NCBI GenBank assembly: GCA_963823335.1
Contig: CAWGLD010000001.1
Location: 320,001-384,000 of the forward strand
Length of the DNA: 64,000 bases
Source: an uncultured delta proteobacterium
GTDB taxonomy: Bacteria > Desulfobacterota > Desulfobacteria > Desulfobacterales > B30-G6
Direction of reading: 5' to 3'
Below, one piece after another: positions 927-32,109 of this stretch. The notes beneath the pieces are model-generated. The model had not been told where the DNA came from. It saw only the letters and a program-made list of their open reading frames with translations, and searched no databases. Made by a program: the position numbers and the translations under genes. The first letter of the stretch is position 1. The number at the start of each line of letters is the position of its first letter.

Positions 927-957
927 TTGACATTCCTCATCACCTCGGATACATAAT
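927..957 (+). promoter_or_regulatory. Possible sigma70 promoter for the act/cco cluster
   Basis: TTGACA at 927-932. The -10 match is imperfect (TACATA at 17 bp spacing or CATAAT at 19 bp). A near-palindrome ATGTCAC-AAT-GTTACAT lies downstream at 972-988. Confidence 0.35.
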
Positions 958-1075
958 TATATACAGGTTTCAATGTCACAATGTTACATATAAGCTGTTC
1001 GCGGTCAATCTTTGGCTGCCAGCCCCGCAAAGCAACAAGTCAAACCCACGTAACTTTGTCGGAGTAAGTGTTTAC

Positions 1076-4015
1076 ATGGATCGTCGGACCTTTCTGAAAA
1101 TAGCCGGTATGGGAAGTCTGGCCTTTGCTTCTTCCTGTACCTCCGAGAGCGACAAAAAACTCTTCTCTCTGGTACAGGCTCCTGCAGACATGGTTACGGG
1201 AAAAGCCAACTGGTATGCTTCCACCTGCCGCGAGTGTCCCGCTGGATGCGGAATTCTGGCGAAAAACCGTGAAGGGCGGATCATAAAGATAGAAGGGAAC
1301 CCGCTGCACCCCATCAACAAAGGCAGGCTCTGCATGCGAGGCCAGGCTGCTCTGCAGGGGGTCTACCACCCGAACCGGCTCAAGGCACCTCTGCTCAAAA
1401 AAAATGGCCGGTTTCAGGCGCTCTCATATTCTGAAGCGACAACGCTCCTGAATTCAAAGGCACTCGCTGCCCGCAATGGATCGAATCGGGCACGCATACT
1501 CACGGAAACAGTCGGTCAAAACCTCATGCGCTTGTTCTCCGATGCATTGCAGAATCTGAACAGCCCACCACCACTCGTGTTCGAACCCTATGCCTATGAA
1601 TCGTTGAAAACCGCCAACAAACTGGTGTTCGGTATCGATGGTCTACCATCTTATCGCATGGACCAGGCAGACCTTCTGGTCTCTTTTGGCGCTGATTTTC
1701 TGGAAACCTGGCTGTCCCCTGTGGAATATGCCTGGAAATTCAAAACCATGCACGCCCATCAGGCTGACACCAAAAATAATTATATTCACATCAGCCCCTT
1801 TCAATCCCTGACCGGTGCCAATGCGGATCTGTGGCTTGCATGCCAACCCGGAGCAGAGCATCTCATCACCCTCGGCCTGATAAAACAGGTCCTGGACGCC
1901 GGTATGGGTCAGTCACTTTCTCCAACCTTCCGGCAGGTCTTGACCACATCCGCAGCCCCTTTTGATCGCAATTTCGTTATTCAGCACACCGGAATATCTC
2001 CACACGGGTATGACAGCCTGGTCCAAGGTCTCGTGCAAGCACGCCGCCCGCTGATTATAGGATCAGGTACCGGTGCCGCCGACACCCATGGATTGACGAC
2101 CCAGGTATGCGTCAACCTGCTCAATCTTCTTCTGGACCCGCAACTTCGCCTGCTGGACTTCACCCGGCGTCATCGGGTGGAAACAGCTGCCAGGCGGGCA
2201 GATATCCTGAGCTTCTTCGACACACTCGATAATGACGCCGTTGAACTGCTGCTGATTAACAATGCCAACCCCGTCTTCTGCATGTCATCCGACAGTTCCG
2301 TGACAGAGGTGCTCGAAAGAAGCGACCGTTTTGTGGTCTGCTTCAGCAATTTTCTGGACGAAACCACAGCATCGGCGGACTTGATTCTGCCGGTACGTAT
2401 GCCCCTCGAGACCTGGGACGAATACGGCGGAAAAAGCGGGATGACGTCGACCCTTCAGCCGGCCATGGGCCAACTGACCCAGACCCCTCATCTGGGGGAT
2501 GTGATACTGAAAACCTGCTTTGGGCCGGAATATTCTTTCAAGGCCTACAAAGATCACCTTGTTTCCATGCTGGCCGGAACCTTTGAAATAGCCGATGAAT
2601 TCAAGTGGGCCAAAACCCTGCAGCAGGGGGGCCGCTTTGACCCGCCGCAATCACCGATCGAATTGCGGCAGCCACCCACCACAGACGCCATTACGACACT
2701 GCTTAGGCAAGGATCTGAATTCAAGACACCGCAACTGACATTTACGGCCACACCCTCCATCCGTTTTTTTGACGGACGGGGTGCCAACAGACCCTGGCTC
2801 TGTGAAATCCCGGATCCTTTATACCGAATTGCCTGGCAGACACCGGTGGTCATGCATCCTGAAACCGCCCGGGCCAACAACGTCGAGCAGGAAGATGTCA
2901 TCGGTATTGAATCCCCTTTCGGCAGTCTGGAAGCACCGGCGGTTCTTTCCGAACTGGTGATGCCGGGGCTCCTGGTCATGACCATCGGGCAGGGTCACCG
3001 GCCTTTTGGAAACGAAACTGAAGTTGCAGGGGTGAACCCCCTGCAGTTGCTTTCCCCAATAGCCCACAAGGACTCCGGCGGCGCCGACCTCCATGCAACC
3101 GGCATCAAGGTACGCAAAACAGGCCGTACCATGAAACTGGCCAGCACCTCGGGCAGCCTGACACAACACGGGCGGACGCTGGCCCTTTCCGTGACGCTGG
3201 CGGAACTGCAGGATAGAAAGACACCCGCCAGATCCGGTCTCACCATGGGAAATTTTCCCCTCACACTCCCCTTACCCGAAGGATACGACCCAAAACGCGA
3301 TGTGTACCCTCCCCATGACCACGATACCTATCGCTGGGGAATGGTGGTGGATCTGGACAGATGTATCGGCTGCGGTGCCTGTTCAGCAGCCTGTTACGCT
3401 GAAAACAATATCGGGGTCGTGGGAGAAAAACGGATCCTGCAAGGCCGTGAGATGGCCTGGATGAGCGTCGAGCGCTACCATGCATCCGACCGGATGGAAA
3501 GGGTGACCTTTCTGCCCATGATGTGCCAGCACTGTGACAACGGCCCGTGCGAGTCGGTCTGCCCGGTGTATGCCCCGCACCATTCCAAGGAGGGCCTGAA
3601 CAACCAGATTTACAACCGCTGTATCGGTACCCGCTACTGTGTTCAGAACTGCCCCTACAAGGTGCGCCGCTTCAACTGGTTTACCTGGGAATGGCCCGAA
3701 CCCATGAATCTTCAACTCAACCCGGATGTCACCGTCCGCAGCAAAGGGGTCATGGAAAAATGTTCCTTCTGTATTCAGCGCATCAAGGCGGCCCATAACG
3801 TTGCCAAGAATGAAAACCGCTTGATCCGGGATGGTGAGGTGCTGCCGGCCTGTGTACAGACCTGCCCCACCAACGCCCTTGTTTTCGGGAACCTGATGGA
3901 CAAAACCAGCCGCGTCCGTAAACTGACCGAGAGTCCCCGTGCCTACCAGGCCCTGGGGTACCTCAATACCAAACCGGCCGTGATATACCTGAAAAAGGTG
4001 GTCCAAGAGATATGA
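1076..4015 (+). CDS. actB: Alternative complex III subunit ActB (molybdopterin-oxidoreductase-like domain fused to an NrfC-like Fe-S domain), Tat-exported
   Basis: Likely start MDRRTFLK (Tat motif) at 1076 with GGAG RBS. Contains CRECPAGC and C-terminal CIGCGACSAAC, CQHCDNGPCESVCP, CIGTRYCVQNCP, EKCSFC, PACVQTCP. Followed by an NrfD-type gene. Confidence 0.9.
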   Translation: MDRRTFLKIAGMGSLAFASSCTSESDKKLFSLVQAPADMVTGKANWYASTCRECPAGCGILAKNREGRIIKIEGNPLHPINKGRLCMRGQAALQGVYHPNRLKAPLLKKNGRFQALSYSEATTLLNSKALAARNGSNRARILTETVGQNLMRLFSDALQNLNSPPPLVFEPYAYESLKTANKLVFGIDGLPSYRMDQADLLVSFGADFLETWLSPVEYAWKFKTMHAHQADTKNNYIHISPFQSLTGANADLWLACQPGAEHLITLGLIKQVLDAGMGQSLSPTFRQVLTTSAAPFDRNFVIQHTGISPHGYDSLVQGLVQARRPLIIGSGTGAADTHGLTTQVCVNLLNLLLDPQLRLLDFTRRHRVETAARRADILSFFDTLDNDAVELLLINNANPVFCMSSDSSVTEVLERSDRFVVCFSNFLDETTASADLILPVRMPLETWDEYGGKSGMTSTLQPAMGQLTQTPHLGDVILKTCFGPEYSFKAYKDHLVSMLAGTFEIADEFKWAKTLQQGGRFDPPQSPIELRQPPTTDAITTLLRQGSEFKTPQLTFTATPSIRFFDGRGANRPWLCEIPDPLYRIAWQTPVVMHPETARANNVEQEDVIGIESPFGSLEAPAVLSELVMPGLLVMTIGQGHRPFGNETEVAGVNPLQLLSPIAHKDSGGADLHATGIKVRKTGRTMKLASTSGSLTQHGRTLALSVTLAELQDRKTPARSGLTMGNFPLTLPLPEGYDPKRDVYPPHDHDTYRWGMVVDLDRCIGCGACSAACYAENNIGVVGEKRILQGREMAWMSVERYHASDRMERVTFLPMMCQHCDNGPCESVCPVYAPHHSKEGLNNQIYNRCIGTRYCVQNCPYKVRRFNWFTWEWPEPMNLQLNPDVTVRSKGVMEKCSFCIQRIKAAHNVAKNENRLIRDGEVLPACVQTCPTNALVFGNLMDKTSRVRKLTESPRAYQALGYLNTKPAVIYLKKVVQEI

Positions 4016-5328
4016 CCCAGCTGAGCTACGCAAAAATCGATCAAACCATTCTGGACACGCTAACACCCCCGAAATGGACCTACTGGGGCATCCTGGTGTT
4101 GCTGCTTCTGGGTGTCCTGACTGGAGCGGCCTGCTGGACGTACCAGATTTTTGTCGGTATCGGGGTGGGTGGGCAAAACAACCCGGTGGCCTGGGGAACC
4201 TATCTGATCAACTTTGTCTTCTGGGTGGGAATCGCTCACTCGGGCACCTTGATTTCCGCTATTCTGCACCTTTTCAGGGCCGGGTGGCGCAATCCCATCG
4301 CCCGGGCAGCGGAAACCATGACGGTATTTGCGGTCTGTGTGGCAGGGCTGTTTCCATTTATCCATCTGGGACGTGTATGGCAGGTGTATTACATGCTCCC
4401 CATACCGAGCCAGAGACTCCTGTGGCCCAACTTCCTTTCACCGCTCATGTTTGACGTGATCGCCATCAGCACCTATCTCACCGTGAGCTCCCTGTTCTGG
4501 TACACAGGCATGTTGCCGGATCTGGCGGCTGTGCGGGACCGCTCCACAGGAACCCGCCACAAAATATTTAGCTTTCTCTCCTTTGGCTGGTCAGGGGCCC
4601 ATGAACAGTGGCGTCATTACACCCGCGGGTATCTCTTCTTTGCGGCCCTGGCAACGCCCCTGGTCATCTCCGTTCACAGCGTCGTTTCCTGGGATTTTGC
4701 CCTGGGTGTCGTGCCGGGATGGCACACAACCATTTTTGCGCCCTATTTTGTCGCCGGTGCTATCCATTCCGGTCTGGCCATGGTCCTGACCCTGATGATC
4801 CCCTTGCGCAAGTTGTTCAAATACGAGGACATCATTACCATGGAGGTTCTGCAGAATGTTGCCAAGACCATCGTATTGACCGGTCTGATTGTCGGCCTGG
4901 CCTACGGAACCGAATATTTCATCGCCTGGTACAGCCACAACAGCGTTGAAATGGAACAGTTCCGCTGGCGAGCCCTGGGAGATTACCGCTGGGGGTTTTT
5001 CTTCATGGTGCTCTGCAACACCCTGGTCCCGCTGCTCTTTTTGTTTAAAAAAATTCGCACCACCGTTGCATCTCTTTTTATCATTTCCCTGGTCGTAAAT
5101 TTCGGGATGTGGTGGGAACGCTTTGTCATCATCGTGGGCGGGGTCGCCCACGGGTTTGCACCCCATGCCTGGGGGCTCTACAGACCCACGATGATTGAAT
5201 TCGGCATTATGTTCGGTGCCTTCTGTCTCTTTTTCTTCTTGTTCGTGTTGTTTGTAAAACACCTGCCCTCTGTTTCCATGACCGAGATGAAAGAGACCCT
5301 CGAAGGAGGTCACGATCATGCCGCATGA
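4012..5328 (+). CDS. actC: Alternative complex III subunit ActC (NrfD/PsrC-family quinol-binding membrane protein)
   Basis: NFVFWVGIAHSGTLISAIL, HLGR, VHSVVSWDF and WHTTIFAPYFVAGAI motifs; multiple TM helices. Confidence 0.92.
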   Translation: MTQLSYAKIDQTILDTLTPPKWTYWGILVLLLLGVLTGAACWTYQIFVGIGVGGQNNPVAWGTYLINFVFWVGIAHSGTLISAILHLFRAGWRNPIARAAETMTVFAVCVAGLFPFIHLGRVWQVYYMLPIPSQRLLWPNFLSPLMFDVIAISTYLTVSSLFWYTGMLPDLAAVRDRSTGTRHKIFSFLSFGWSGAHEQWRHYTRGYLFFAALATPLVISVHSVVSWDFALGVVPGWHTTIFAPYFVAGAIHSGLAMVLTLMIPLRKLFKYEDIITMEVLQNVAKTIVLTGLIVGLAYGTEYFIAWYSHNSVEMEQFRWRALGDYRWGFFFMVLCNTLVPLLFLFKKIRTTVASLFIISLVVNFGMWWERFVIIVGGVAHGFAPHAWGLYRPTMIEFGIMFGAFCLFFFLFVLFVKHLPSVSMTEMKETLEGGHDHAA

Positions 5329-5890
5329 ACGACATGTCATGGGATTTTTTAAGAACGAAGATCACGTGGTTTCAGCGCTTGAGGCATTGAAGACCTCTCC
5401 CTATGAATTCGTTCGCGTCAACACCCCCATCCCGAGCCATAAGATCATGCAGGCCTTGAACTTGAAGAAAAGCAAGGTGGGCTGGTTTACCCTCTGCGGC
5501 GGGATTATAGGATTCATAAGTGGATTTGGCCTGGCTGCTTTCACCGCCACACGCTGGGATCTGATTGTCAGCGGCAAACCCATCATGGCCATCATTCCCT
5601 TTGTGGTGGTGGGTTTCGAAGCAACGATTCTCTTTGCCGTGTTCGGAAACGTAATCGGGCTTCTGACCCAGATGCGGATGCCGAACAATAAATGGCTGCA
5701 GTATTATGATCCGCGTTGTTCTGGAGAGCATTTCGGTGTTCTGGCCGCCTGCGAAGCCCATCAGGAAAATGGCCTGCAAAATTTCTTCAGGGAACGGGGA
5801 GCGGAGGTAAGAATTTGGATCACCTCCAAAGGGGTCGATCCAAATGAAGGGTTCGAGGATTCGAGGGTTCAAGGGTCCGTGGGTAGCTGA
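5318..5890 (+). CDS. actD: Alternative complex III subunit ActD (DUF3341-like)
   Basis: TPIP...H motif, two TM helices with VSGKP...P..VGFE, YDPRCS, position after actC. The C-terminal ~14 aa derive from an octamer repeat. Confidence 0.85.
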   Translation: MPHERHVMGFFKNEDHVVSALEALKTSPYEFVRVNTPIPSHKIMQALNLKKSKVGWFTLCGGIIGFISGFGLAAFTATRWDLIVSGKPIMAIIPFVVVGFEATILFAVFGNVIGLLTQMRMPNNKWLQYYDPRCSGEHFGVLAACEAHQENGLQNFFRERGAEVRIWITSKGVDPNEGFEDSRVQGSVGS

Positions 5891-6000
5891 CAGCTATCAG
5901 CGGACAGTAGCACTTGAACCCTGGATTCCTTGACCCCTTGAACCCTTTATCCCAATGAATTGGGAGAAGAACCAACTTGTTCAACACTGGATAAACCCAT

Positions 6001-7218
6001 ATGATGGATGCCGAAACAAACCAACAGAGCGCCGTTAAGAAGACCCCTGCATTCGGGGTGTTCATTGCCCTGTTCATTGTGGGGGCCGTGACCTTCCTGT
6101 GGGAATTGACCAGTCATCACCCGCAAAGAGCCTGGCAGGCCTATCTGATCAATTTCCTGCTCTGGTCGGCCATTGCCCAGGGGGCCCTGCTGTTCTCGGC
6201 GGTCATGCACATAACCAAAGCACGCTGGAGCGGTCCGCTTTCAGATCTTTCGGAATCCTTTGCGTCATTTTTTCCAATTTCCTTTGTGCTGTTTCTGATC
6301 CTCTTCATGGGAAACAACCATATATTCCCATGGCTCCACGAGGATCTGCACGGTAAAGAAGTCTGGCTCAATATCCCCTTTCTTTTTGCCCGGGACGGCA
6401 TGGGTCTCCTTATTCTGTACCTCCTGGGTTTCGGATACCTGTTTTATGCCTTACAGCTCAAACTGGACCGGCATGAACCCAAAGGAAAGATCCGTAAGGC
6501 ACTTTTAAGGCACTGGCAGAAAAAACAGCTCCCAGCGGAAAAGATCCACCAAAAAATGACCCTCTGGGGCGGACTCTATATCCTGGCATTTGCCCTTGTC
6601 TTGAGCCTCATGGGATTCGATCTTGTCATGAGTATGGATCCACACTGGGTTTCCACCCTTTTTGGTGCATACCATTTCGTCAAAGCCTTTTTTGTAGGAC
6701 TGGGAGGACTGATCATTCTTGCCTCGGTTATGCATACCCATAACGGGCAGAGCTCCCCCTTGACACCCGCCCATTTCCATGACATCGGCAAGCTGTTTTT
6801 CGGCTTCTGCCTTTTGTGGGCTGATTTCTTTTATGTCCAGCTGCTGGTTATCTACTATGGCAACATCCCCGAAGAAACCTATTATGTGATTACACGTACC
6901 ATGCTGGCACCCTGGAACAAGCTGGCCTGGGGGGTTTTTATCATCTGTTTCGTGGGCCCTTTTTTCATTCTGCTGAATAAAAATGTGAAAACACGGCCCC
7001 TTTTCATGGCTGTCATATGCAGCATCGTCATCGTTGGGATCTGGTTCGAGCACCTCCTACTTCTGGGCCCGGCCTTGAGCCACGGTGCATCATCCATCTC
7101 CCTGGGTTTTTCAGACGGGTTGATTTCCCTGGGCTTTTTCGGGCTCATGGCCCTGGCTATCGGCTCTTTCTTCCACGTCTTTCCGGAGCTGGCCGGAAGA
7201 GAGAGGAACGACCATTGA
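6001..7218 (+). CDS. actF: Alternative complex III subunit ActF (ActC paralogue)
   Basis: ~10 TM helices; WLNIPFLFAR, MSMDPHWVSTLFG, HDIGKL and QLLVIYYGNIPEE motifs. Confidence 0.88.
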   Translation: MMDAETNQQSAVKKTPAFGVFIALFIVGAVTFLWELTSHHPQRAWQAYLINFLLWSAIAQGALLFSAVMHITKARWSGPLSDLSESFASFFPISFVLFLILFMGNNHIFPWLHEDLHGKEVWLNIPFLFARDGMGLLILYLLGFGYLFYALQLKLDRHEPKGKIRKALLRHWQKKQLPAEKIHQKMTLWGGLYILAFALVLSLMGFDLVMSMDPHWVSTLFGAYHFVKAFFVGLGGLIILASVMHTHNGQSSPLTPAHFHDIGKLFFGFCLLWADFFYVQLLVIYYGNIPEETYYVITRTMLAPWNKLAWGVFIICFVGPFFILLNKNVKTRPLFMAVICSIVIVGIWFEHLLLLGPALSHGASSISLGFSDGLISLGFFGLMALAIGSFFHVFPELAGRERNDH

Positions 7219-7727
7219 AAAAAAACAAGACCGCCATTCTGTTAAGCGTATCAGCGCTGATTTTCACGGCCGGCTTTCTGTTTTTATTCTATGGCATATC
7301 TTCCGATGCAATGGGTCCGGAACAACCCATACCCTTCAGCCACAATGTTCACGTTGGCATCAAACAGATACAATGTCAGTACTGCCACCCCTATGTGGCC
7401 TATTCGACCTTTCCGGGGATACCACCGGTGGAAAAGTGTCTTCACTGCCATAACTATATCATTGCCAACCACCCATGGATACAGGAGGAACACCGCTATT
7501 TCGATACCGGAAGTCCCACGCCATGGAAAAAAGTCAACTACGTTGCCGAACACGTTCTTTTCAACCACCAGCGGCACATCAACAAGAAAGTGGCCTGTCA
7601 GGAGTGCCATGGTCCGGTGGAGAATCAACATCGCCTGCCGGCTAAAACCTGGCGTATGGGCATGTGTATCGAATGCCACCAGCAAAAAGGTGCCAATCTG
7701 GACTGCTGGCTGGCTTGCCACAGCTAA
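7215..7727 (+). CDS. actA: Alternative complex III pentaheme cytochrome c ActA
   Basis: Likely TTG start at 7215 with GAGAGG RBS. N-terminal TM, QPIPFSH, heme motifs CQYCH, CLHCH, CQECH, CIECH and atypical CWLACH. Confidence 0.87.
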   Translation: MKKNKTAILLSVSALIFTAGFLFLFYGISSDAMGPEQPIPFSHNVHVGIKQIQCQYCHPYVAYSTFPGIPPVEKCLHCHNYIIANHPWIQEEHRYFDTGSPTPWKKVNYVAEHVLFNHQRHINKKVACQECHGPVENQHRLPAKTWRMGMCIECHQQKGANLDCWLACHS

Positions 7728-7741
7728 TTGAAGGAGTGACT

Positions 7742-9115
7742 TTGGCTACCGAAGAAACTGAAAAAAAGATCTACCAGAACCAGACGGCCAGGGCCTTTGT
7801 CTTGACATCGGCTTCCTGGTTCGCCGTGGCGACAACCTTCGGACTTATCGCCGCAGGATACCTGATGGCACCTGATTTCATGGCCAATATCGAATATATT
7901 CACTTCGGACGCATGCGCCCCATGCACATCAACGCCGTGCTGTTTGGATTCGTGACCCCCGGTCTTCTGGCAGTCGCTTTCTACTATATACCCCGCATGC
8001 TGCGCACGGAGCTCTACAACCACAAGCTGGGTGTTCTGAGCGCCATCTTTTGGAATATCACGGTGACTGCCGGTATGATCGGAATTTCTCTGGGACATAC
8101 CCAGGGGCGGGAATATGCGGAGCTGCCCTGGCTGGTGGACATCATGGTGGTCATTTCCTTCACACTGGTGGCCGTCAACCTGCTCATGACCATCGCCAGA
8201 CGTAAAGAACCCATCCTGTATGTTTCCATCTGGTATGCCATGTCGGCCGTCATTCTCACGGCCTGTACCTATTGTCTGGGCAATGTCATCTGGAAACCGG
8301 ATACGGGCGCCCTGGTGGGCATACCTGATGCGATTCTATTGTGGTTTTACGGCCACAATATCTTCGGTCTCTTGTTATCCCCCATGGCGCTGGCTGTGGC
8401 GTATTATGTGCTGCCAATCGCCACCCGCAGCCCCCTTTACAGTCACACCATGTCTCTGGTGGGGTTCTGGTCACTCATCATCGTCTATACCCACGTGGGT
8501 ACCCATCACCTGCTCCAGGTCCCGGTGCCCACCTGGTTGAAAACCATCTCCATTGTGGACAGCGTGGCCATGGTTATTCCGGTGATGATTGTTTTGATCA
8601 ACCTCTGGTACACGGTGAAAGGCAAGTTGGGGGATATCCACGCCGACGTCGGTGCCAAGTTCGTGTTTACCGGCACCATCTATTATTTCTTCGTCAATAT
8701 GCAGGGATCCATGATGGCACTGCCGCATGTCCAGCGTATCACCCATTTCAACAACTGGGTTGTGGGGCATGCGCATATCGGTGTGCTCGGTTTTGCCGGC
8801 ATCACCGCCCTGGGAGGCATCTATTTTATTCTGCCCAGGATGACCGGCAAACCGCTCTACAGCAGGTTTCTGGCAGATCTGCAATACTGGCTGGTTCTGA
8901 TCGGAATCACCGGTTTTGCAGTGGTGCTCACCACTGCGGGCCTTATTCAGGGCAATGCCTGGTATAACGGTGAAACCCTCTACCGGACACTGCCTGAAAT
9001 TCAACCCTACTATATTTTAAGAGCGTCCCTGGGTGCACTGATCGTGATCGGTGCTTATCTTGGACTGTATAACGTGGTTCGATCTCTCTATTTTAATCGT
9101 GGAGCTTCAACATGA
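7742..9115 (+). CDS. ccoN: cbb3-type (family C) heme-copper oxidase subunit I
   Basis: FGRMRPMHIN, REYAELP, WFYGHN, Y-x-x-x-G-x-HH (VYTHVGTHH) and GHAH motifs. Start placed at TTG 7742 after AAGGAG. Confidence 0.88.
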   Translation: MATEETEKKIYQNQTARAFVLTSASWFAVATTFGLIAAGYLMAPDFMANIEYIHFGRMRPMHINAVLFGFVTPGLLAVAFYYIPRMLRTELYNHKLGVLSAIFWNITVTAGMIGISLGHTQGREYAELPWLVDIMVVISFTLVAVNLLMTIARRKEPILYVSIWYAMSAVILTACTYCLGNVIWKPDTGALVGIPDAILLWFYGHNIFGLLLSPMALAVAYYVLPIATRSPLYSHTMSLVGFWSLIIVYTHVGTHHLLQVPVPTWLKTISIVDSVAMVIPVMIVLINLWYTVKGKLGDIHADVGAKFVFTGTIYYFFVNMQGSMMALPHVQRITHFNNWVVGHAHIGVLGFAGITALGGIYFILPRMTGKPLYSRFLADLQYWLVLIGITGFAVVLTTAGLIQGNAWYNGETLYRTLPEIQPYYILRASLGALIVIGAYLGLYNVVRSLYFNRGAST

Positions 9116-10044
9116 AGATGACGCCAACCGTCATCATTGTCGGTATCCTGTCTCTGCTGACGGCCATTATCCTGACCATTGTCTACTGGCCGTATACACA
9201 GCGTATAACAGAGCCTTCCGAGATTTTCCGTGAACGGGTGCCCGTAGAGGCTGCCGGGCGCAAAATCTATCTGGAAAACGGTTGCGTATATTGTCACAGC
9301 CAGTCCATTCGTTCCATCGACTGGGGCCACGGCGCAGACCGAATTGCTCAGCCGGGTGACTATATTGCCGATGAACCCATTGCACTGGGATCGCAACGTA
9401 CCGGTGTAGACCTCTCCCAGGAAGGCGGTGAACACCCGGATGACTGGCATATCACCCATTTTGTCAATCCGCGCTACACACGGCCTGCCTCCATCATGCC
9501 TCCCTTCGAGTGGTTGGGCATGGAGCGTATCCAGACACTGACGCATTATATGCAAAGCCTGGGATTCAAGAATGCGGACAAACGTATGGAGCGGCAGCAT
9601 TACTGGAAGAAAGAAGCCATCAAGGCCTATGAATCCGGACCTGACATCAACATCCAATGGTTGTCTGATATCACCCCCGAGGGGTGGCGAAACATACCGA
9701 ACCCGTATCCCACTACCCGCGCCGGTCTGCAGCGGGGACACAAAATCTATCAAAATTTCTGTATCGGCTGTCACGGACCCATTGGTGACGGGATGGGTCC
9801 CGGACAACCCTGGATGTACCCACCCCCCTTGAATTTTACCGTATTGAAGGGCAGAGGCATCTCGGGCGGCATTCTTTACTACCAGATCATGAACGGCATC
9901 ACCGGAACCGCCATGCCCTATTTCAAGCGGGACCTGGAGTCACAGAAAATATGGGAGGTGGGTGACTACGTTGCGGTCAACTTTATCAATCAAAGCGATG
10001 CCAATACAGAACCGCGGGGTATTGATTCGGCGTGGGAGCCTTAA
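9112..10044 (+). CDS. ccoO: cbb3-type oxidase subunit II (CcoO) fused to a second c-type heme domain
   Basis: GCVYCHSQSIR, GSQRTGVDL, SIMPPF (CcoO) plus C-terminal CIGCHG...GTAMPYF. Confidence 0.88.
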   Translation: MKMTPTVIIVGILSLLTAIILTIVYWPYTQRITEPSEIFRERVPVEAAGRKIYLENGCVYCHSQSIRSIDWGHGADRIAQPGDYIADEPIALGSQRTGVDLSQEGGEHPDDWHITHFVNPRYTRPASIMPPFEWLGMERIQTLTHYMQSLGFKNADKRMERQHYWKKEAIKAYESGPDINIQWLSDITPEGWRNIPNPYPTTRAGLQRGHKIYQNFCIGCHGPIGDGMGPGQPWMYPPPLNFTVLKGRGISGGILYYQIMNGITGTAMPYFKRDLESQKIWEVGDYVAVNFINQSDANTEPRGIDSAWEP

Positions 10045-11468: not shown

Positions 11469-11987
11469 ATGAAAAAACTGATTGGACTCTTCATCTTGGC
11501 TGGTATCATCAGCCTGGCAGCCTACCAGGCCCTGATGTACTACGACAACAACTTCCGTTACGGTCGTATGCGGGAAACCCCGGGGGTCAAACCCCACGAG
11601 ACCCCTTTACTGGTCTCGGAACCGGATATCGTTCCCATCCATGGCGGAGACGCAGTCTACCGGTTAACACCGGCAGCTGATCTGCTGGCACCCCTCGACA
11701 TGCAGGCATCCGCCACCATTACCAGGGGCGAAAACCTCTATCGTGTATACTGTGCCCAGTGCCATGGCAACAACTTCGATGGCAAAGGTACCGTTGGACA
11801 AAGTTTTCAACCCTTGCCTGCCAACCTTCGTGGCCCCGAGGTTCAGGCAAAAACAGAAGGTGAATTATTCAAATCCATCAGTTTCGGTATTCCGGGCGGT
11901 CGTCAGCCCGCCCTCGACACAACCATCGCACCGGATGACCGCTGGTATATCATCGCCTTTGTTCAATCCCTGGATCATGACAAATAA
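11469..11987 (+). CDS. actE: Monoheme cytochrome c, ActE-like
   Basis: N-terminal anchor, MRETPGVKPHE...P..G pattern, RGENLYRVYCAQCHG, DRWYIIAFVQSL. Confidence 0.72.
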   Translation: MKKLIGLFILAGIISLAAYQALMYYDNNFRYGRMRETPGVKPHETPLLVSEPDIVPIHGGDAVYRLTPAADLLAPLDMQASATITRGENLYRVYCAQCHGNNFDGKGTVGQSFQPLPANLRGPEVQAKTEGELFKSISFGIPGGRQPALDTTIAPDDRWYIIAFVQSLDHDK

Positions 11988-14484
11988 AACCTGTGATCTA
12001 TGTGGCTTGTCCCTCCGGCATGGCGCTGTCAGTGCCATCATTTCCGAAAAATCCATGCAGTTCTGCTGCTTTGGCTGCAAGCAGGTCTATGAAATCTTGT
12101 TGGCCGCTTCAGGCGACCTGGCTCCGGATGAATTCAGGGAAACGGACATTTTCAAACGTTGCCTGGCAGCCGGTATCATTCCGGAATCCATGGACGACCT
12201 TGAAAAGAAGAAGCTGTCAACCACACCGGGAAAAGTACCCGGCCGGATCCGGGAACCCAAAATGGCCGACAACGAACCCGCATCTGAATCGGATGACGGG
12301 CTTTGGCTCGATCTGAATGTCCGCGGTATGTGGTGCCCGGCCTGCGCCTGGGTGGTTGAAGAAACATTGATCAAAGAACCGGGTGTAAAACAGGCCAAAT
12401 GCCAATTTACCACAGACCGCATCAAACTCAAATACAACCCGGTTCTCACCTCGCCGCAACACCTCATGGAGGCCATGAAAAAGATTGGATATCATGGCAG
12501 CCCTGTCGAAGACGGACAAAAAAAACCTGAGTCCAGAAAAGAATTTATCCGGCTGGGTATTTCGGCCTTTCTGACCATGAATGTGATGATGCTTTCTTTT
12601 GCCCTCTATACCGGTTTTTTCACCCAGCTTTCTGCAGACACCATCCATCATTTCACCTGGCCCATTGTTGTCATGGCTTCGGCGGTCTTTATTTATGGTG
12701 GCGCCCCAATTCACCGCAAGGCCGTGTCCGGCCTGTCGACGGCATCGCCCGGCATGGAAACTCTCATCAGCATGGGCGCCGGCAGTGCTTTTTTTTACAG
12801 CCTGTTCAACTGGTTCACAGGAAGTATCCATCTCTATTTCGATACCACGTGCATGTTGATCAGTCTGGTTCTGGTGGGCAAGGCCATCGAGCAGCGAACC
12901 AAAGACAGGATCAATGCCCAGATCAGCAGGTTTTTTGAACTTCAGCCTTCCAAGATAAGGATTTGCACGGAAAAATTTCCCCAGGGAAAATACATGCAAG
13001 CCCGGCTGCTGTCTCCCGGAGACATTTTTCGGGTCGAAGCAGGGGAAATCGTCCCGGCAGACGGTAGAATCCTGAAGGGAGACGCGCGCATCGATGAAAG
13101 CACCCTGACCGGTGAAGCAAGACCGATTCATAAACAAAAAGGAGACATGCTAAACAGTGGAACGACGATCATCTCAGGCGCCCTCCAGGTATCGGCTCAC
13201 GCTGTAGGTGAGAATTCCCTGGTTGGGCAGTTGATATCCGTCATGGAAGCTTCCCTGGATCAGAAAGCGCCGATGGAAGATATCACCGATAAGGCTCTGA
13301 AATATTTCGTTCCCGCCATCATATTGCTGGCCATGGGAACGGCCATGGTTTGCCTGTTCCTTGGCTTCAGCGCTCAACATGCCATCATTCGTGCCGTCAC
13401 CGTCATGGTAATCTCCTGCCCCTGTGCCCTGGGCTTTGCCATTCCACTGGCAAGGGTGGCCGGAATCTCCCTGGCAGGCAAAAACGGAATTCTCGTTCAC
13501 CACTTCTCGGCCTTTGAAAAGATCAGAAAAATCGACACGTTTGTTTTCGACAAAACCGGCACCCTCACCAGGGGTGAATGGGATTTGATAGAAATAGAGA
13601 CGCTGGGTCACTGGTCTGTGGACAACGTCCTCTCCCTTGCCGCCGGCCTGGAGTCCCATTCAGACCATTATGCCGCAGAGGCCATTGTTCATGCTGCTCG
13701 GGAAAACAAGCGTGTGCCTGCAACAGCCACACGCATTACAGAAACAGACAACGGCATTTCCGGTTATGTGGAAAACAGTCTTGTCAAAATCGGGTCCGCT
13801 GCATTTTTTCCCGCTGAAACCGTCACCCCCCGGCAATACCATGGCGACGAAAAAGCAGATACGGCAGCTGTCATTTCCACCGTACACATGCGTGTCGATG
13901 AGAAGCCCTGCGCCCTGTTTCATTTTGGCGATACGCTACGTTCATCGAGCAAAACCGTTATTCAAGACTTGAAGGATCGCGGTATGCAGCTTGCCCTGAT
14001 ATCGGGCGACGGCCAGGGAACCACCCGAATGATCGCTAATCTTGTCGGTATTTCAGAATACCGCGGCAATATGCTGCCTGAAAACAAGTCTGAATTTGTC
14101 AGGACCTTACGGGAACGGGGACATTTGGTAGCCATGGTCGGCGACGGTGTCAATGATGTTCCGGCGCTCGCTTCCGCCGATCTGGGAATCGCTGTTCATT
14201 CCGGGCATCGAATCGGCATGGAAGCATCCGGTATTACCTTGATGGGAAATGACCCCGCCCAGATACTCACCTTTACCGCACTCGCCTCACATGTCTCCCG
14301 CACGATTAAACAGAATCTCGTTTTTACCTTTCTGTACAACATCATCAGTATCCCCATCGCCATGAGCGGTCTTCTGAATCCACTGGTTGCGGTTTCCGCC
14401 ATGCTCATGAGCAGCTTAAGCGTCACAGGAAACACCCTGTACCTCACCCGGCGGGTATCCAGACAAAAAGATGAAATCGCATAG
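11977..14484 (+). CDS. ccoI: P1B-type heavy-metal (Cu) ATPase, CcoI/FixI-like
   Basis: Likely start 11977 (MTNKTCDLC...FCCFGC). HMA GMWCPAC, TGE, CPC, DKTGT, GDGVND and YN motifs. Confidence 0.9.
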   Translation: MTNKTCDLCGLSLRHGAVSAIISEKSMQFCCFGCKQVYEILLAASGDLAPDEFRETDIFKRCLAAGIIPESMDDLEKKKLSTTPGKVPGRIREPKMADNEPASESDDGLWLDLNVRGMWCPACAWVVEETLIKEPGVKQAKCQFTTDRIKLKYNPVLTSPQHLMEAMKKIGYHGSPVEDGQKKPESRKEFIRLGISAFLTMNVMMLSFALYTGFFTQLSADTIHHFTWPIVVMASAVFIYGGAPIHRKAVSGLSTASPGMETLISMGAGSAFFYSLFNWFTGSIHLYFDTTCMLISLVLVGKAIEQRTKDRINAQISRFFELQPSKIRICTEKFPQGKYMQARLLSPGDIFRVEAGEIVPADGRILKGDARIDESTLTGEARPIHKQKGDMLNSGTTIISGALQVSAHAVGENSLVGQLISVMEASLDQKAPMEDITDKALKYFVPAIILLAMGTAMVCLFLGFSAQHAIIRAVTVMVISCPCALGFAIPLARVAGISLAGKNGILVHHFSAFEKIRKIDTFVFDKTGTLTRGEWDLIEIETLGHWSVDNVLSLAAGLESHSDHYAAEAIVHAARENKRVPATATRITETDNGISGYVENSLVKIGSAAFFPAETVTPRQYHGDEKADTAAVISTVHMRVDEKPCALFHFGDTLRSSSKTVIQDLKDRGMQLALISGDGQGTTRMIANLVGISEYRGNMLPENKSEFVRTLRERGHLVAMVGDGVNDVPALASADLGIAVHSGHRIGMEASGITLMGNDPAQILTFTALASHVSRTIKQNLVFTFLYNIISIPIAMSGLLNPLVAVSAMLMSSLSVTGNTLYLTRRVSRQKDEIA

Positions 14485-14601: not shown

Positions 14602-15309
14602 ATGAACGAACCCAACGAAAATATCGACTTAAAAGAAATTTTGCATTTTGATGGTCATGCTGTGGATTGGTGGGATCTCAAGGGTCCCCTGAAGGCCCTG
14701 CATGAGATCAACCCCTTGCGCCTGCAGTATATCCAAAAGCATGCCGGTATTGCGGGAAAAACTTTTCTGGACGTCGGGTGCGGTGGTGGGATTCTGTCGG
14801 AAGCACTGGCCTCGGCCGGTGGATATGTGACCGGAATAGATATGACGGAATCTGCCTTGAGTGCCGCGCGAGAGCATTTAATAAAAACAAATCAGCGGCT
14901 TCAATACCGCCGTACAACTGTCGAAGAACATTCAAGGGAAAGCCAAAACCGTTACGACAGCATTACATGCATGGAGTTACTGGAACACGTTCCCCGGCCG
15001 GCATCGGTGTTAAGTGCCTGCGCTCGGCTTCTTAAACCTGGCGGTGATATGTTTATCGCCACCATCAACCGAACATGGACGGCGTATATATTGGTAATCC
15101 TGGCGGCTGAGTATCTATTGAGAATTGTTCGCAAAGGCACCCATACATATGGAAACTTCATTCAGCCCCAGGAAATCAGCCATTGGGCAGCAGATATTGG
15201 CATGAAAACAATGGATCTTGGCGGCTATTTATACAACCCTTTTACAGGAAACACGCGTCTGTCATCCTTCACCGGAATGAATTACCTGATGCATTTGAGA
15301 AAAGTATGA
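14602..15309 (+). CDS. ubiG: UbiG-type O-methyltransferase
   Basis: WWDLKGPLKALHEINPLRL, LDVGCGGGILSE, CMELLEHVP and AEYLLRIVRKGTH are UbiG signatures. Confidence 0.9.
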   Translation: MNEPNENIDLKEILHFDGHAVDWWDLKGPLKALHEINPLRLQYIQKHAGIAGKTFLDVGCGGGILSEALASAGGYVTGIDMTESALSAAREHLIKTNQRLQYRRTTVEEHSRESQNRYDSITCMELLEHVPRPASVLSACARLLKPGGDMFIATINRTWTAYILVILAAEYLLRIVRKGTHTYGNFIQPQEISHWAADIGMKTMDLGGYLYNPFTGNTRLSSFTGMNYLMHLRKV

Positions 15310-16166
15310 ATAAACCGACAAAAAACAGACTCAACGACTGGAAACCACCTGCCTGGCTTGACAAAAACGAACGCCAGAAAATGCTCGATGCCTATGTGGA
15401 TTCATCGGACACCGCCTACTTTGGGTTCAAGCGGCATCGGGCCGCTGAAAAAGCAAAATCCGTTTTATCTCATTTCAATCGTGTGGCTCCCAAGTATGAT
15501 TTCATGAACTCCGTTCTCAGCTTCGGAATTCATCACGCCTGGAAGAGGACGGCCATCCGTATGCTCCATCTGAAACCGGGTGATCAACTTCTGGACGTCT
15601 GTGGTGGTACCGGGGATCTGGCGGTCCTTTCCGCTGCACGCATCGGGAGTGACGGCCATGTCTTTATTTATGACATCAATCGCGCCATGATGGCAACCGG
15701 AAGAGACCGGCCTGAAAACCAGGAGAAGCGCTCGTGTATTCACTATATCGAAGGTGATGCGGAACAGATAGCCTGTCATGAAAATCGGTTTGATGCCGCC
15801 ATTGTCGGGTTTGGCATCCGGAATCTGACCCATCTTGAAAAAGGTTTTCAGGAAATGTACCGGGTTTTGAAACCGGGTGGGAAGGTCATGTGCCTGGAAT
15901 TTTCAAAACCCACCAACCCCCTGTTCCGCTGGTTATATGACTTCTATTCCTTCAATATCATGCCCTTTGCCGGTTCTGTCCTGGCCGGTTCGCGACAGTC
16001 TTATGCCTGCCTGTCCCAAACCATTCGCATGTTTGCATCTCCGGATGAATTGAAAAATATTCTCGAAAGCATCGGATTTGAAGCGGTTTCGTACAAGCGC
16101 CTGACCAACGGTATCGCCGTAATCCATATGGGCCGCAAACCTCCAAGCAATCGCTCGATGCTGTAA
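15306..16166 (+). CDS. ubiE: UbiE/MenG-type C-methyltransferase
   Basis: FNRVAPKYDFMNSVLSFGIH, LDVCGGTGD, FGIRN, EMYRVLKPGG and LEFSKP motifs. ATG 15306 overlaps the ubiG stop. Confidence 0.92.
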   Translation: MNKPTKNRLNDWKPPAWLDKNERQKMLDAYVDSSDTAYFGFKRHRAAEKAKSVLSHFNRVAPKYDFMNSVLSFGIHHAWKRTAIRMLHLKPGDQLLDVCGGTGDLAVLSAARIGSDGHVFIYDINRAMMATGRDRPENQEKRSCIHYIEGDAEQIACHENRFDAAIVGFGIRNLTHLEKGFQEMYRVLKPGGKVMCLEFSKPTNPLFRWLYDFYSFNIMPFAGSVLAGSRQSYACLSQTIRMFASPDELKNILESIGFEAVSYKRLTNGIAVIHMGRKPPSNRSML

Positions 16167-16199
16167 GTCGCTTGTCCATATCCAAAAAGGATTAAATGA

Positions 16200-17357
16200 A
16201 TGTTTGACTACAACCGGAAAATCGATTTGGATGGCGGAAAAATTGTCCAGATTGACAATGCGCTGGATGCAACATCACCTATATTCTTTGGATATGATAT
16301 CGAAGAGCGGTTCATTGACGTCCTTGATCGGTCGACACAGGATATGCCCGTTGACAGGCTTTTTTTGCTGACGGACCGCACTATCTTCGATTTTTTCGGT
16401 GAGAGGTATTTGAGCAGGCTCAGTGAAAGGTTTCCAGACACGGAACTGTACCTGCTCCCCGAGGGAGAAAAAAGCAAAACATTTGAGGTTCTTCAGCAGC
16501 TGTGCAATCAGCTCGTAGAGAAAGGGGTGAGTAAACAGTCGCTGCTGATCGCCTTCGGCGGAGGCTCCATCGGAAATATCACCGGTCTTGCCGCCGGTCT
16601 GATATTTAGAGGCATTCGATTCATTGAAGTTCCCACCACGCTTTCCCACCAGACCGATGGAATGCTCAGCAACAAGCAGGCTGTGAACGGAAGGTTCGGC
16701 AAAAATCACTTCGGGCTTTACCACACCCCTGTTTTTTCATGGACGGACACACGTTATCCCGAAACAGAGCCGTTGAGGTTCAAAAAATCCGGTATCGTCG
16801 AAGGAATCAAAAACGGCTTGATCGATCAGAAGGAATTTATCCGCTACCTGGAAAAAACCATTAAACAGCATGGCGATTATTCTCCACAAGAACTCACCGA
16901 TCTTTGCTACAAACTGATCATTTCAAAACTTGAAATTCTCAAAAAAGATCCAACGGAAAAGCATTACGGAATTATTCTTGAATACGGGCACACCTTTGCC
17001 CACGCCATCGAATGGCTTTCCAAGGGTAGCCTGGCTCACGGGGAAGCCGTTTCCATCGGCATGAAAATCGCAGCGGAGCTTTCCGCTGAATTGGGATATA
17101 TTGACAGTGACGCACTGGCCCTTCATTACCGTTTAATCGATGAGTTACTGGCACTCAAGCCCAGGCTTCCAGAAAAGATTGATCCACAGTCCATTCTCAA
17201 AACCATGGTTGTCGACAATAAAAAAACGGGCAGAAATGTGAGATATGTTCTTCTAGAAAAAATCGGACAATGCAAAAAAGGCAATGGAGATTATCTCATC
17301 AGCGTGGATAGAGAGATCGTTCAATCTGTGATTGAGGCGTTTATCAGTAAGTATTAA
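16200..17357 (+). CDS. Sugar-phosphate cyclase of the DHQ-synthase superfamily, 2-deoxy-scyllo-inosose synthase (BtrC)-like
   Basis: GGGSIGNITG (Asn where AroB has Asp), PTT...D..LSNKQAVN (AroB has SSVGGKTxVN), ILEYGHT (AroB has LN[FL]GHT), HGEAV. These match the BtrC/DOIS pattern as I recall it. Confidence 0.75.
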   Translation: MFDYNRKIDLDGGKIVQIDNALDATSPIFFGYDIEERFIDVLDRSTQDMPVDRLFLLTDRTIFDFFGERYLSRLSERFPDTELYLLPEGEKSKTFEVLQQLCNQLVEKGVSKQSLLIAFGGGSIGNITGLAAGLIFRGIRFIEVPTTLSHQTDGMLSNKQAVNGRFGKNHFGLYHTPVFSWTDTRYPETEPLRFKKSGIVEGIKNGLIDQKEFIRYLEKTIKQHGDYSPQELTDLCYKLIISKLEILKKDPTEKHYGIILEYGHTFAHAIEWLSKGSLAHGEAVSIGMKIAAELSAELGYIDSDALALHYRLIDELLALKPRLPEKIDPQSILKTMVVDNKKTGRNVRYVLLEKIGQCKKGNGDYLISVDREIVQSVIEAFISKY

Positions 17358-17368
17358 AGGCAGCCAAA

Positions 17369-18322
17369 ATGGAGAAAAATGATTTGAAAGCATCGTCCGG
17401 GGCCTCCCCTTCACGCCGGAGTCGATGGCTCCGCACGTTAAATGTAACCGATGCGCCGGCCCATACGGACGCCCCCCATTGCGGATCCATCGGGCATGTT
17501 CTGCCGTTTCCAGAAAGTTGTCGTTTGGCGGACAAATTTGGATATGATGCCGTCAATGCCGATCGTTTCTTTTTAAAAGAACACGGCCCCATTCAGGCAG
17601 CCACCCTGCTGAAGCGACACAATATAAAGCCTGGCGCCTTTGCTTTTTCGGCGGCATTCAATGCCTGCTATTCCGACTCGGATTTCGAGCAAAGCCTTAC
17701 AGAATTCGAGCAGGATGTATCCTTGTGCAGAGAGGCGGGTTTCACGTACTGCGTGGGGTATGTGCAGCCCTCATCCCACACACTGGACTATTACGATCAC
17801 TTCGCACTTTTGTCTGGGCGTTTGAAACGCATAAAACCCCTGCTGGAAACATATGATGTGCGTCTAGGCCTGGAATTTATCGGTCCCACCACCATGCGCA
17901 TACGTCGAAAATTCGATTTCATACACACCATGGACGGCATCAGGAGTCTCATCGCCGCCGCCAACGCGCAGAACTGCGTGGGTTTCAAACTGGATACCCT
18001 GCATTGGTATACCAGTGGTGCAGGATTATTGGACATTGAAAAGCTTTCTGCCGAGGAAGTTGTTTATGTGGAGCTCAATGACGGTCTGAAGGGGGATTAC
18101 GACCGGTTCACATTACCCGAGTTTCAACGGGAATTGCCGGGAGCTGTCGGCACCATCGATATAGCCGGAATGCTCAGAAAACTCGATGCTATAGGCTTTG
18201 ATGGGCCGGTGGTTGTGGAACCATGGAATGCGCTGCTTCGTGAAATGAGCCCTGAGGAAGCCGTTGAGAAAGTAAAGCTTGCCTTGGATCTCAGTTTAAA
18301 TAAGGCCGGGATTGACGTCTGA
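17369..18322 (+). CDS. Xylose-isomerase-like TIM barrel (AP_endonuc_2 / IolE-IolI-AsbF superfamily)
   Basis: Metal-ligand pattern LGLE, LDTLH, ELND, ELPG..G.ID, VVVE. Confidence 0.8.
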   Translation: MEKNDLKASSGASPSRRSRWLRTLNVTDAPAHTDAPHCGSIGHVLPFPESCRLADKFGYDAVNADRFFLKEHGPIQAATLLKRHNIKPGAFAFSAAFNACYSDSDFEQSLTEFEQDVSLCREAGFTYCVGYVQPSSHTLDYYDHFALLSGRLKRIKPLLETYDVRLGLEFIGPTTMRIRRKFDFIHTMDGIRSLIAAANAQNCVGFKLDTLHWYTSGAGLLDIEKLSAEEVVYVELNDGLKGDYDRFTLPEFQRELPGAVGTIDIAGMLRKLDAIGFDGPVVVEPWNALLREMSPEEAVEKVKLALDLSLNKAGIDV

Positions 18323-31413: not shown

Positions 31414-32109
31414 TTAAAACCGAAATCCCTTCCAGATAAAATACATACCCATTACCATCATCAAAACAGCACCGATCTGGTATACTTTTTCGCGCTGCCG
31501 CAACCAACGCAGATCCGTGAGTCTCGACACCAGAAAAAGCGCCGGCATGGTGCCGAAACCAAAACAGAGCATGAGACCCGCCCCGGAAAACACACCGCCC
31601 AGAGTGGTGTCTGCCTCCATTCCTGAGCGTGCAGCCGCAAGCAGGGCGGTATAAACCGGCCCGCAGGGCAGCAGCCCGAGAAGCAGTCCGAGAGGTAGAT
31701 ACATCAGGGGATGCTTCTTTTTCTGCAGCAGCTTTTTAAAAGCCCCGCTGATGAAGGTGCCAACCGGGGGCGCCGCCCGGAAGATGATACCGCTTGGCAC
31801 CCAGCCGGTCATTGCCAGACCCATCAGGATGATAAGGACACCCGCAGCCACCATGACCCCTTTTTGCAAACCATCGATACTTTCTGCAAAACGGGTGAAG
31901 GAGGCCATGCCACCTACGATTGCACCCAGGAGACCATAGGTCAGGGTTCGGCCGGTAGTGTAAAACAGATGGGGCCAGACCGATGGAGCACCCTTTAAAT
32001 TCAGTGAAAGCGAAATGACGATGGGCCCACACATACCGATACAGTGCCCGAAACCGATGCTAACACCGGTTGTGAAGAAGAGAATATATATGGAACTAGT
32101 AGACAACAT
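31414..32109 (-). CDS. DsbD_2/TauE-like membrane protein (cbb3/Cu maturation-associated)
   Basis: GHCIGMCGP, GRTLTY, GLLPCGPVY and FGFGT.P motifs. Confidence 0.85.
   Translation of the reverse strand: MLSTSSIYILFFTTGVSIGFGHCIGMCGPIVISLSLNLKGAPSVWPHLFYTTGRTLTYGLLGAIVGGMASFTRFAESIDGLQKGVMVAAGVLIILMGLAMTGWVPSGIIFRAAPPVGTFISGAFKKLLQKKKHPLMYLPLGLLLGLLPCGPVYTALLAAARSGMEADTTLGGVFSGAGLMLCFGFGTMPALFLVSRLTDLRWLRQREKVYQIGAVLMMVMGMYFIWKGFRF

Follow-up and report, generated by a model that had tools for sequence, protein, structure and literature searches.

How would an anaerobe of the Desulfobacterales type come to keep ubiquinone-type methyltransferase genes in one run with a sugar-phosphate cyclase gene, downstream of genes that resemble a respiratory chain to oxygen? 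The question is raised by a 64,000-nucleotide stretch of DNA from an uncultured delta proteobacterium (contig CAWGLD010000001.1, positions 320,001 to 384,000), which we call the window and whose positions are counted from its first letter. Four genes stand together in it:

14602..15309, + strand: UbiG-type O-methyltransferase (TIGR01983, 248 bits against a cut-off of 103)
15309..16166, + strand: UbiE/MenG-type C-methyltransferase (PF01209, 245 bits; also NF001244 and TIGR01934)
16200..17357, + strand: sugar-phosphate cyclase of the dehydroquinate synthase (DHQS) fold, resembling 2-deoxy-scyllo-inosose (DOI) synthase (DOIS) (PF01761 and PF24621)
17369..18322, + strand: xylose-isomerase-like TIM-barrel enzyme (PF01261, 82 bits)

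The best explanation that we can offer, held with about even confidence, is a pathway in which this operon works with a UbiA-like prenyltransferase and a UbiB-family protein, both also encoded in the window, to make a benzoquinol that carries a prenyl chain and O- and C-methyl groups and whose ring would come from hexose phosphate. The DOIS-like cyclase would convert glucose-6-phosphate, or an epimer, to a deoxy-inosose (mannose-6-phosphate, the substrate of EboD, may be an alternative to glucose-6-phosphate), the TIM-barrel enzyme would dehydrate or isomerise this toward a polyhydroxybenzene, the UbiA-like enzyme would prenylate the ring, and UbiG and UbiE would O-methylate and C-methylate it, respectively. 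We infer each of these chemical steps, the product and its use with the neighbouring respiratory enzymes from sequence. The formal chemistry fits the proposal, because dehydration of DOI or inosose gives a tri- or tetrahydroxybenzene: following the Frost and Kakinuma groups, DOI minus two H2O is taken to be 1,2,4-trihydroxybenzene and inosose minus two H2O a tetrahydroxybenzene, whose 1,2,3,4 isomer reportedly has the oxygen pattern of ubiquinol. The parts of this explanation differ in strength. A functional tie of the cyclase and the TIM barrel to the ubi-like set is likely; given such a tie, it is quite likely that the two enzymes supply the ring; and if they do, the product is likely, at the least, to be a membrane redox quinone.

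The four genes form a tight run on one strand, with spacers of 0 (ubiG/ubiE), 33 (ubiE/cyclase) and 11 bases (cyclase/TIM barrel). The ubiE reading frame opens at 15183, and its likely start is the ATG at 15309. Both methyltransferases pass equivalog thresholds, UbiG as listed and UbiE with TIGR01934 (238 bits, cut-off 158) and NF001244 (234 bits, cut-off 216); the top NCBIfam match of UbiE is MpqE, at 260 bits under its cut-off of 335. We found no convincing terminator between the four genes, a promoter and terminator scan gave no excess over shuffled sequence, and an Rfam scan of the window at gathering thresholds gave no match.

The evidence that ties the cyclase to the ubi-like genes comes from 301 genomes of the order Desulfobacterales, in which we counted UbiG, UbiA-like proteins and three unrelated types of cyclase: DOIS-like, myo-inositol-phosphate-synthase-like (MIPS-like) and NF004852-type DHQS-like. 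We also counted TIM18, another TIM-barrel subfamily, which partners the MIPS-like or DHQS-like cyclases. UbiG orthologues occur in 126 genomes and UbiA-like orthologues in 140, with both in 119, UbiG alone in 7, the UbiA-like gene alone in 21 and neither in 154. For the UbiA-like gene and TIM18, the corresponding counts (both, first only, second only, neither) are 106, 34, 8 and 153, and for the UbiA-like gene and any of the three cyclases 105, 35, 15 and 146. These tables are descriptive only, because related genomes are not independent and the pattern is partly phylogenetic. MIPS-like orthologues were found in 94 genomes and DHQS-like ones in 24, one or the other occurs with TIM18 in 104, and in the cases checked the MIPS-like and DHQS-like genes directly adjoin TIM18.

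Physical linkage follows the same lines. A TIM-barrel gene together with UbiG or the UbiA-like gene is present in 111 genomes, and although most assemblies are in too many pieces to show the distances, the genes lie on the same contig in 38, within 20 kb in 31 of these and within 5 kb in 24, in 13 families. Across 22 UbiG loci, UbiG recurs with UbiE, the UbiA-like gene and its two small flanking genes, UbiB, a P-type ATPase gene and genes for cbb3-type oxidase or alternative complex III (ACIII). Three loci illustrate the arrangements:

G240: UbiG, MIPS-like cyclase, TIM18
G148: ACIII, cbb3, ATPase, UbiG, UbiE, UbiA-like, TIM18, MIPS-like cyclase
G037: TIM18, DHQS-like cyclase (NF004852, 552 bits against 333), UbiG, UbiA-like, UbiB, ATPase, cbb3

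The two kinds of cyclase-TIM pair do not overlap. TIM18 is present in none of the seven genomes that carry the window-type pair, and six of these seven have both UbiG and the UbiA-like gene, the seventh being a 1.9-Mb partial assembly. In most relatives, then, the same downstream set would be fed by a MIPS-like or an NF004852-type DHQS-like cyclase with TIM18, and in this lineage the DOIS-like module would sit where relatives have the other modules. Since one cyclase type replaces another, a cyclitol-derived ring gains support. New here are the counts across the order, the finding that non-orthologous cyclases replace one another, and the lack of overlap between pair types. Our comparison thus backs the functional tie between the sugar cyclase, the TIM barrel and the UbiG/UbiE/UbiA-like/UbiB set that the first-pass annotation of the window had drawn. 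Its expectation of conserved co-occurrence held in part: the cyclase and TIM barrel recur with the ubi-like set in 13 families, whereas linkage of all four genes was confined to close kin. We had also considered that the cyclase might be irrelevant to the set, given UbiG in 126 of the 301 genomes against the cyclase in 2, and dropped this idea on finding that UbiG neighbourhoods hold other cyclases plus a TIM barrel.

These counts bear on a rival explanation, which we consider unlikely, namely that two independent systems lie side by side. The cyclase and TIM barrel would make a soluble cyclitol product (an osmolyte, antioxidant, signal or exported metabolite), and the ubi-like set would use a conventional or catabolic ring, either 4-hydroxybenzoate that is decarboxylated in a UbiB-dependent step or hydroxyhydroquinone released by anaerobic degradation of aromatics; their proximity would reflect only shared regulation, for example by oxygen. 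Against it, three unrelated cyclase types each recur adjoining UbiG or the UbiA-like gene in the 13 families, the UbiA-like gene is missing from only 8 of the 114 genomes with TIM18, and the pair types were not seen together in any one genome.

Several MIPS-like genes are interrupted. In G001 (locus L094, G001:C1:196920-198995) the MIPS-like gene upstream of UbiG has four in-frame TGA codons and TIM18 is split in two, so that both may be decaying copies. One TAG each was seen in the MIPS-like genes of G070 and G212, and one TGA in that of G054.

The window cyclase itself is DOIS-like, as judged from its sequence, and not AroB, which is how the first-pass annotation had read it. It does not reach the AroB model TIGR01357 (232 bits against 305), and a canonical aroB, for which that annotation had proposed a check, lies elsewhere in the source genome (G000:C1:661349-662272, 351 bits against the cut-off of 305). 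Among sequences in the PDB, the cyclase alone scores best with the DOIS BtrC (2d2x/2gru, 186 bits), ahead of the best DHQS (158), EEVS (83) and DDGS (72), and a profile of 18 family members widens the lead of BtrC (BtrC 243, best DHQS 197, EEVS 108, DDGS 100). The BtrC motifs GGGSIGN, LSNKQAVN and EYGHT match 2d2x residue by residue, and GN, LSxKQAVN and EYGHT, which had been noted in place of the AroB motifs, are invariant among the 18 members. We take the Glu of EYGHT to replace the Asn of DHQS, and presume that the residues of all three motifs have an active-site or mechanistic role. In a quick IQ-TREE analysis, whose only outgroups were the genome's own AroB and one NF004852-type DHQS-like protein, a long, supported branch parts the cyclase family from both, and nine Desulfobacterales-type sequences form a clade of their own (99% SH-aLRT). 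Of the phylogenetic placement proposed in the first pass, the separation from AroB therefore comes from a tree, and the comparison with BtrC, DHQS, EEVS and DDGS is a score ranking against the PDB. The canonical aroB makes up the N-terminal portion of a 638-aa reading frame (G000:C1:660416-662332; L001:568-2484, - strand), and the C-terminal extension looks, by eye, like shikimate dehydrogenase.

On the same data, we consider it very unlikely that protocatechuate serves here as a ubiquinone ring precursor, with the cyclase acting as an additional dehydroquinate synthase and the TIM barrel as a dehydroshikimate dehydratase of the AsbF/QuiC type. Such a role could draw on the 232 bits that the aroB model still gives the cyclase, on the presence of QuiC1 (5hmq) among the top structural matches of the TIM barrel and on a weak QuiC sequence match (19.8 bits). 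It is opposed by the BtrC-type motifs, by the higher BtrC score and by the long, supported branch between the cyclase family and AroB in the quick tree. Moreover, the equivalent place in relatives is taken by a MIPS-like enzyme, which is unable to make dehydroquinate, and a protocatechuate route would still require a decarboxylase and a hydroxylase, neither of which was found in the genome.

In function, BtrC-type DOIS belongs to 2-deoxystreptamine aminoglycoside pathways. The window cyclase shares its motifs and has it as best solved sequence match, but is not adjoined by aminotransferase, dehydrogenase or glycosyltransferase genes; its partner is a TIM barrel, its host is a Desulfobacterales-type anaerobe, and the likeness to BtrC is one of sequence. 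The AF2 model of the TIM-barrel enzyme (pLDDT 86) has as top Foldseek matches the uncharacterised 3u0h, IolI (1i60), which is an inosose isomerase, and QuiC1, which dehydrates dehydroshikimate, followed by many sugar epimerases. IolI/IolE and AsbF/QuiC are xylose-isomerase-like TIM barrels that act on inososes or dehydroshikimate, and the window enzyme has the same fold at 17-24% identity; AsbF and IolE also match the TIM18 subfamily, only weakly. The modelled fold suits a cyclitol or cyclohexanone substrate, and we propose that the enzyme is a dehydratase or isomerase acting on a cyclitol. As this fold family also includes epimerases and isomerases, an aromatising role for the window enzyme is a proposal only.

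The prenylation step would fall to a gene about 15 kb downstream of the operon, where the UbiA-like and UbiB genes are divergently transcribed:

32716..33666, - strand: divergent UbiA-superfamily prenyltransferase (PF01040, 89.6 bits against 34.2)
34415..36127, + strand: UbiB-family kinase-like protein (TIGR01982, 419 bits against a cut-off of 488)
31414..32175, - strand: DsbD_2-type membrane protein (PF13386)
32096..32542, - strand: 148-aa protein that accompanies the UbiA-like gene and has no family match in the domain-library scan

The first pass had placed ubiA and ubiB at 32716-36127. The positions are right, and the names need loosening, as both proteins fall below equivalog cut-offs. 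The UbiA-like protein is assignable at superfamily level only: it scores 36 bits against 275 with the UbiA model TIGR01474, its best specific-model match is ubiA_other (61 against 181), and it reaches no quinone-specific prenyltransferase model. It retains both Asp-rich motifs, NDxxDxxxD at residues 72-80 and DxxDxxxD at residues 208-215. We use the label UbiB-family for its neighbour because the TIGR01982 match, over the full model length, is a near miss. UbiB also adjoins the UbiA-like gene in G263 and G037, and at least three genomes (the window's, and those of loci L099 and L101) keep the DsbD_2-type and 148-aa genes next to the UbiA-like gene. A further prenyltransferase domain of the UbiA superfamily was seen elsewhere in the source genome, as the C-terminal part of a 577-aa reading frame that begins with IspH (TIGR00216, 275 bits; G000:C1:1319939-1321672, L086:574-2307).

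If the ring comes from sugar, the usual genes of ring supply and hydroxylation should be dispensable. The first-pass annotation had noted their absence from the window, and this extends to the genome with one reservation: a search of the whole source genome (G000, 93.9% complete) revealed no UbiC, no Coq7 and no UbiH/F/I-type monooxygenase, UbiX not having been searched for. Of two UbiD homologues, one is a phenylphosphate carboxylase beta subunit and the other adjoins a 3-hydroxyacyl-CoA dehydrogenase gene in a setting of beta-oxidation type, and two U32 proteins score under the UbiU cut-off, so that no UbiD or UbiU in the genome is assignable to ubiquinone synthesis. A source of 4-hydroxybenzoate, decarboxylation by UbiD/X and three ring hydroxylations, which define the classical ubiquinone pathway, were therefore not recovered (UbiX again lying outside the search). 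The lack of UbiC and of any known ring hydroxylase in the genome also speaks against the rival of two independent systems. The genome encodes MenA, and therefore menaquinone is made; tblastn found no second UbiE/MenG in the genome, and as the sole copy in a MenA genome the window UbiE probably serves menaquinone too. At G000:C1:567157-570448 (L082), a phenylphosphate synthase-like gene stands with the gene for the phenylphosphate carboxylase beta subunit (TIGR02724, 508 against 469); these genes suggest that phenol is degraded anaerobically, a process from which phenolic rings could come.

A scan of one genome per species yielded 148 stretches encoding a relative of the cyclase, of which 79 loci were kept. 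The window-type TIM barrel is paired with the cyclase in 27 of the 79, and a cyclase-TIM pair without ubiG or ubiE neighbours occurs in Desulfosarcina. The cultured Desulfosarcina alkanivorans PL12 carries the window-type pair and, in addition, UbiG and the UbiA-like gene. In 31 mostly cyanobacterial loci, the cyclase stands with a major facilitator superfamily (MFS) transporter, a second TIM-barrel subfamily and a short-chain dehydrogenase/reductase (SDR), sometimes also with a cytochrome b561, and in eight loci, mostly from Firmicutes, its neighbour belongs to a third TIM-barrel subfamily, in most cases accompanied by a gene for a zinc alcohol dehydrogenase. Because its partners differ among phyla, we regard the cyclase-TIM pair as a mobile two-gene module. 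Independently of the quinone question, the DOIS-like family is thus widely found away from aminoglycoside clusters, both in cyanobacteria and in other phyla. It is common in the cyanobacterial loci L011-L068 (e.g. L011:4408-8709), which lack aminoglycoside genes; some cyanobacterial loci carry the window-type TIM barrel instead of the second subfamily, and in two loci (L030 and L069) a methyltransferase gene lies between the cyclase and the TIM barrel.

Besides the phylogenetic dependence of the tables, a number of observations weigh against a sugar-derived quinone ring. True orthologues of the window cyclase occur in 2 of the 301 order genomes, the order ubiG-ubiE-cyclase-TIM was found in 4 of the 79 loci, all at least 81% identical and hence close kin, and in 7 of the 38 same-contig cases, such as G049, the genes lie far apart. 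ACIII, cbb3 or the CcoI-like ATPase was found within the retrieved neighbourhood in 9 of 35 loci in addition to the window, which is a minority. For the operon itself, contigs from four estuary RNA libraries (at least 95% identity) cover the four-gene run and bridge its three junctions; this support is weak, since RNA libraries may include DNA and one contig does not prove one transcript. The fold search does not separate a dehydratase from an isomerase or epimerase for the TIM barrel, and the position of UbiE in the operon may reflect menaquinone synthesis. Other observations also favour two independent systems. No cyclase of the three types was found in 35 of the 140 genomes with a UbiA-like gene, and in one cyclase-less family the neighbours of this gene encode a cytochrome b5-DUF2231 protein, an additional methyltransferase and a fumarase-like lyase. 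Within the genus of the window genome, the run ACIII-cbb3-ATPase-UbiG-UbiE of G263 (94% complete) continues with a 2-hydroxyacid dehydrogenase gene, and this genome has no cyclase, and G159 (93% complete) has ubiG-ubiE without a cyclase. The cyanobacterial cyclases have MFS, SDR and cytochrome b561 genes, not prenyltransferases, as neighbours. Phenolic intermediates should be available, given the phenylphosphate synthase and carboxylase genes, and UbiB-dependent decarboxylation is reported in a 2026 preprint.

At L115:2628-3395 and L115:1605-2411 (G028) and at L117, L122 and L125, in genomes with UbiG and the UbiA-like gene and no cyclase, the UbiA-like gene has as neighbours the cytochrome b5-DUF2231 membrane protein and a further class I methyltransferase that adjoins UbiE; the ring may here be decorated or obtained in another way.

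Among known systems, the closest to the window gene set is, by analogy, the ebo/thallusin pathway. Clusters of the ebo/thallusin kind are reported to combine a sugar cyclase (EboD) or inositol genes with a TIM barrel (EboE) and a UbiA-type prenyltransferase (EboC) to make a prenylated aromatic. They resemble the window in having a DHQS-fold cyclase or, in its place, genes for inositol-phosphate synthase, next to a TIM barrel of the xylose-isomerase-like kind and a prenyltransferase of the UbiA superfamily, and in a cyclitol that ends up in a prenylated aromatic, the window product being proposed only. The window set differs in having UbiG, UbiE and UbiB and a place beside ACIII/cbb3, and its predicted product is a simple benzoquinol, as opposed to the quinoline meroterpenoid of ebo.

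This likeness suggests a further rival, which we regard as decidedly improbable: an ebo-like cassette whose product, a prenylated cyclitol or a meroterpenoid, would act outside respiration, in signalling, as a carrier or as a lipid, UbiG being a tailoring enzyme and UbiE simply MenG. It would account for the shared logic, including the swap of a sugar cyclase for inositol genes in ebo/thallusin clusters, for the 21 genomes with a UbiA-like gene and no UbiG, 16 of which have TIM18, and for the failure of the UbiA-like protein to match any quinone-specific prenyltransferase model. The details fit less well. The prenyltransferase has no EboC match; TIM18 reaches 35 of the 250 bits that the EboE model requires, and the window TIM barrel does not match EboE at all. 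The loci examined showed no EboA, EboB or EboF-like genes and no neighbours of TatD or phosphodiesterase-like type. Furthermore, UbiG lies far above its equivalog cut-off, the UbiA-like gene has UbiB as a neighbour, and cbb3, ACIII or the CcoI-like ATPase accompanies the set in the 9 of 35 loci and the window.

The sugar-derived benzoquinol pathway can also be set against established quinone routes. In PMC13386864, the sole ubiquinone pathway reported for the phylum is the classical, O2-independent one of the Desulfobacterota class GWC2-55-46, which uses UbiT/U/V. That route resembles the window set in UbiG, UbiE and a UbiB-family protein and in its association with a high-affinity oxidase in a mostly menaquinone-using phylum. 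The window genome differs in having no UbiC, canonical UbiA, UbiI/H/F, Coq7 or UbiU/V above cut-off (UbiX not searched for) and no UbiD assignable to the pathway, with the sugar cyclase and TIM barrel present instead. The MpqE match of the window UbiE recalls the methyl-plastoquinone pathway of Nitrospirota. That pathway reportedly begins at an aromatic acid and has no O-methylation.

To our knowledge, every described route to a respiratory quinone (ubiquinone, plastoquinone, methyl-plastoquinone and menaquinone) starts from chorismate-derived aromatics. Benzoquinone routes also need ring hydroxylases. In the open full-text literature, a scope that leaves out most subscription journals and supplementary tables, we found no description of a respiratory quinone ring derived from a cyclitol or sugar. 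A wider form of the sugar-derived pathway, which we advance tentatively and doubt somewhat more than we believe, is that the 140 of 301 genomes of this nominally anaerobic order make a high-potential benzoquinone, perhaps ubiquinone or a demethoxy relative, without hydroxylase, decarboxylase or O2. All ring oxygens would come from cyclised hexose phosphate, and the swap of cyclases would tune the number of methoxy groups, a MIPS-like enzyme leading through inosose to tetrahydroxybenzene and a DOIS-like or DHQS-like enzyme through deoxy-inosose to trihydroxybenzene. The quinone would serve ACIII and cbb3 under oxygen exposure. If this were true, a ready-oxygenated sugar ring would be a third way to such a cofactor, independent of O2; it would bear on the origin of high-potential quinones and of aerobic respiration and could explain ACIII/cbb3 chains in sulfate-reducer-type bacteria. 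A UbiA-like gene accompanied by a cyclase and a TIM barrel, UbiG being optional, would provide a simple genomic marker.

The respiratory genes that precede the operon are the following:

905..10044, + strand: ACIII-like genes, then CcoN-like and CcoO-like cbb3-type oxidase genes (NCBIfam)
11743..14484, + strand: heavy-metal P-type ATPase, CcoI/FixI-like (CPC, DKTGT and GDGVND in the translation)

The ACIII-like block comprises a 1036-aa fused QrcB/QrcC-like subunit, NrfD/DsrP-like membrane subunits and a multihaem c subunit, and the cbb3-type subunits are CcoN-like (7664-9115, + strand) and CcoO-like (9112-10044, + strand). ACIII and cbb3 are assigned at family level only, because all NCBIfam matches fall below equivalog cut-offs. 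The tight same-strand run of ubiG, ubiE, cyclase and TIM barrel was originally described as lying directly after this cluster; its reading frames stand as described, with the ATPase gene in between. We take CPC, DKTGT and GDGVND to be P-type ATPase motifs. Homologues of the ATPase occur in 8 of 23 sources, the window included, and recur adjoining UbiG/UbiE in other genomes. A gene of about 1035 aa (k4) near the UbiA-like gene in one family was considered as an ACIII subunit; it gave no match to the window ActB at the thresholds used, and the k4 loci were for that reason not counted as ACIII-linked. One of the RNA-library contigs (X2, record 9) has 13 bases of the ATPase-UbiG spacer (window 14469-14483) swapped for 154 others, which suggests strain variation in a putative promoter region. 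Downstream of the operon, at 19988-23526 (- strand), a molybdopterin oxidoreductase (PF00174) and a cytochrome b561 (PF01292) form a pair that looks MsrPQ-type, and this pair is followed by a 544-aa multihaem cytochrome c (PF11783).

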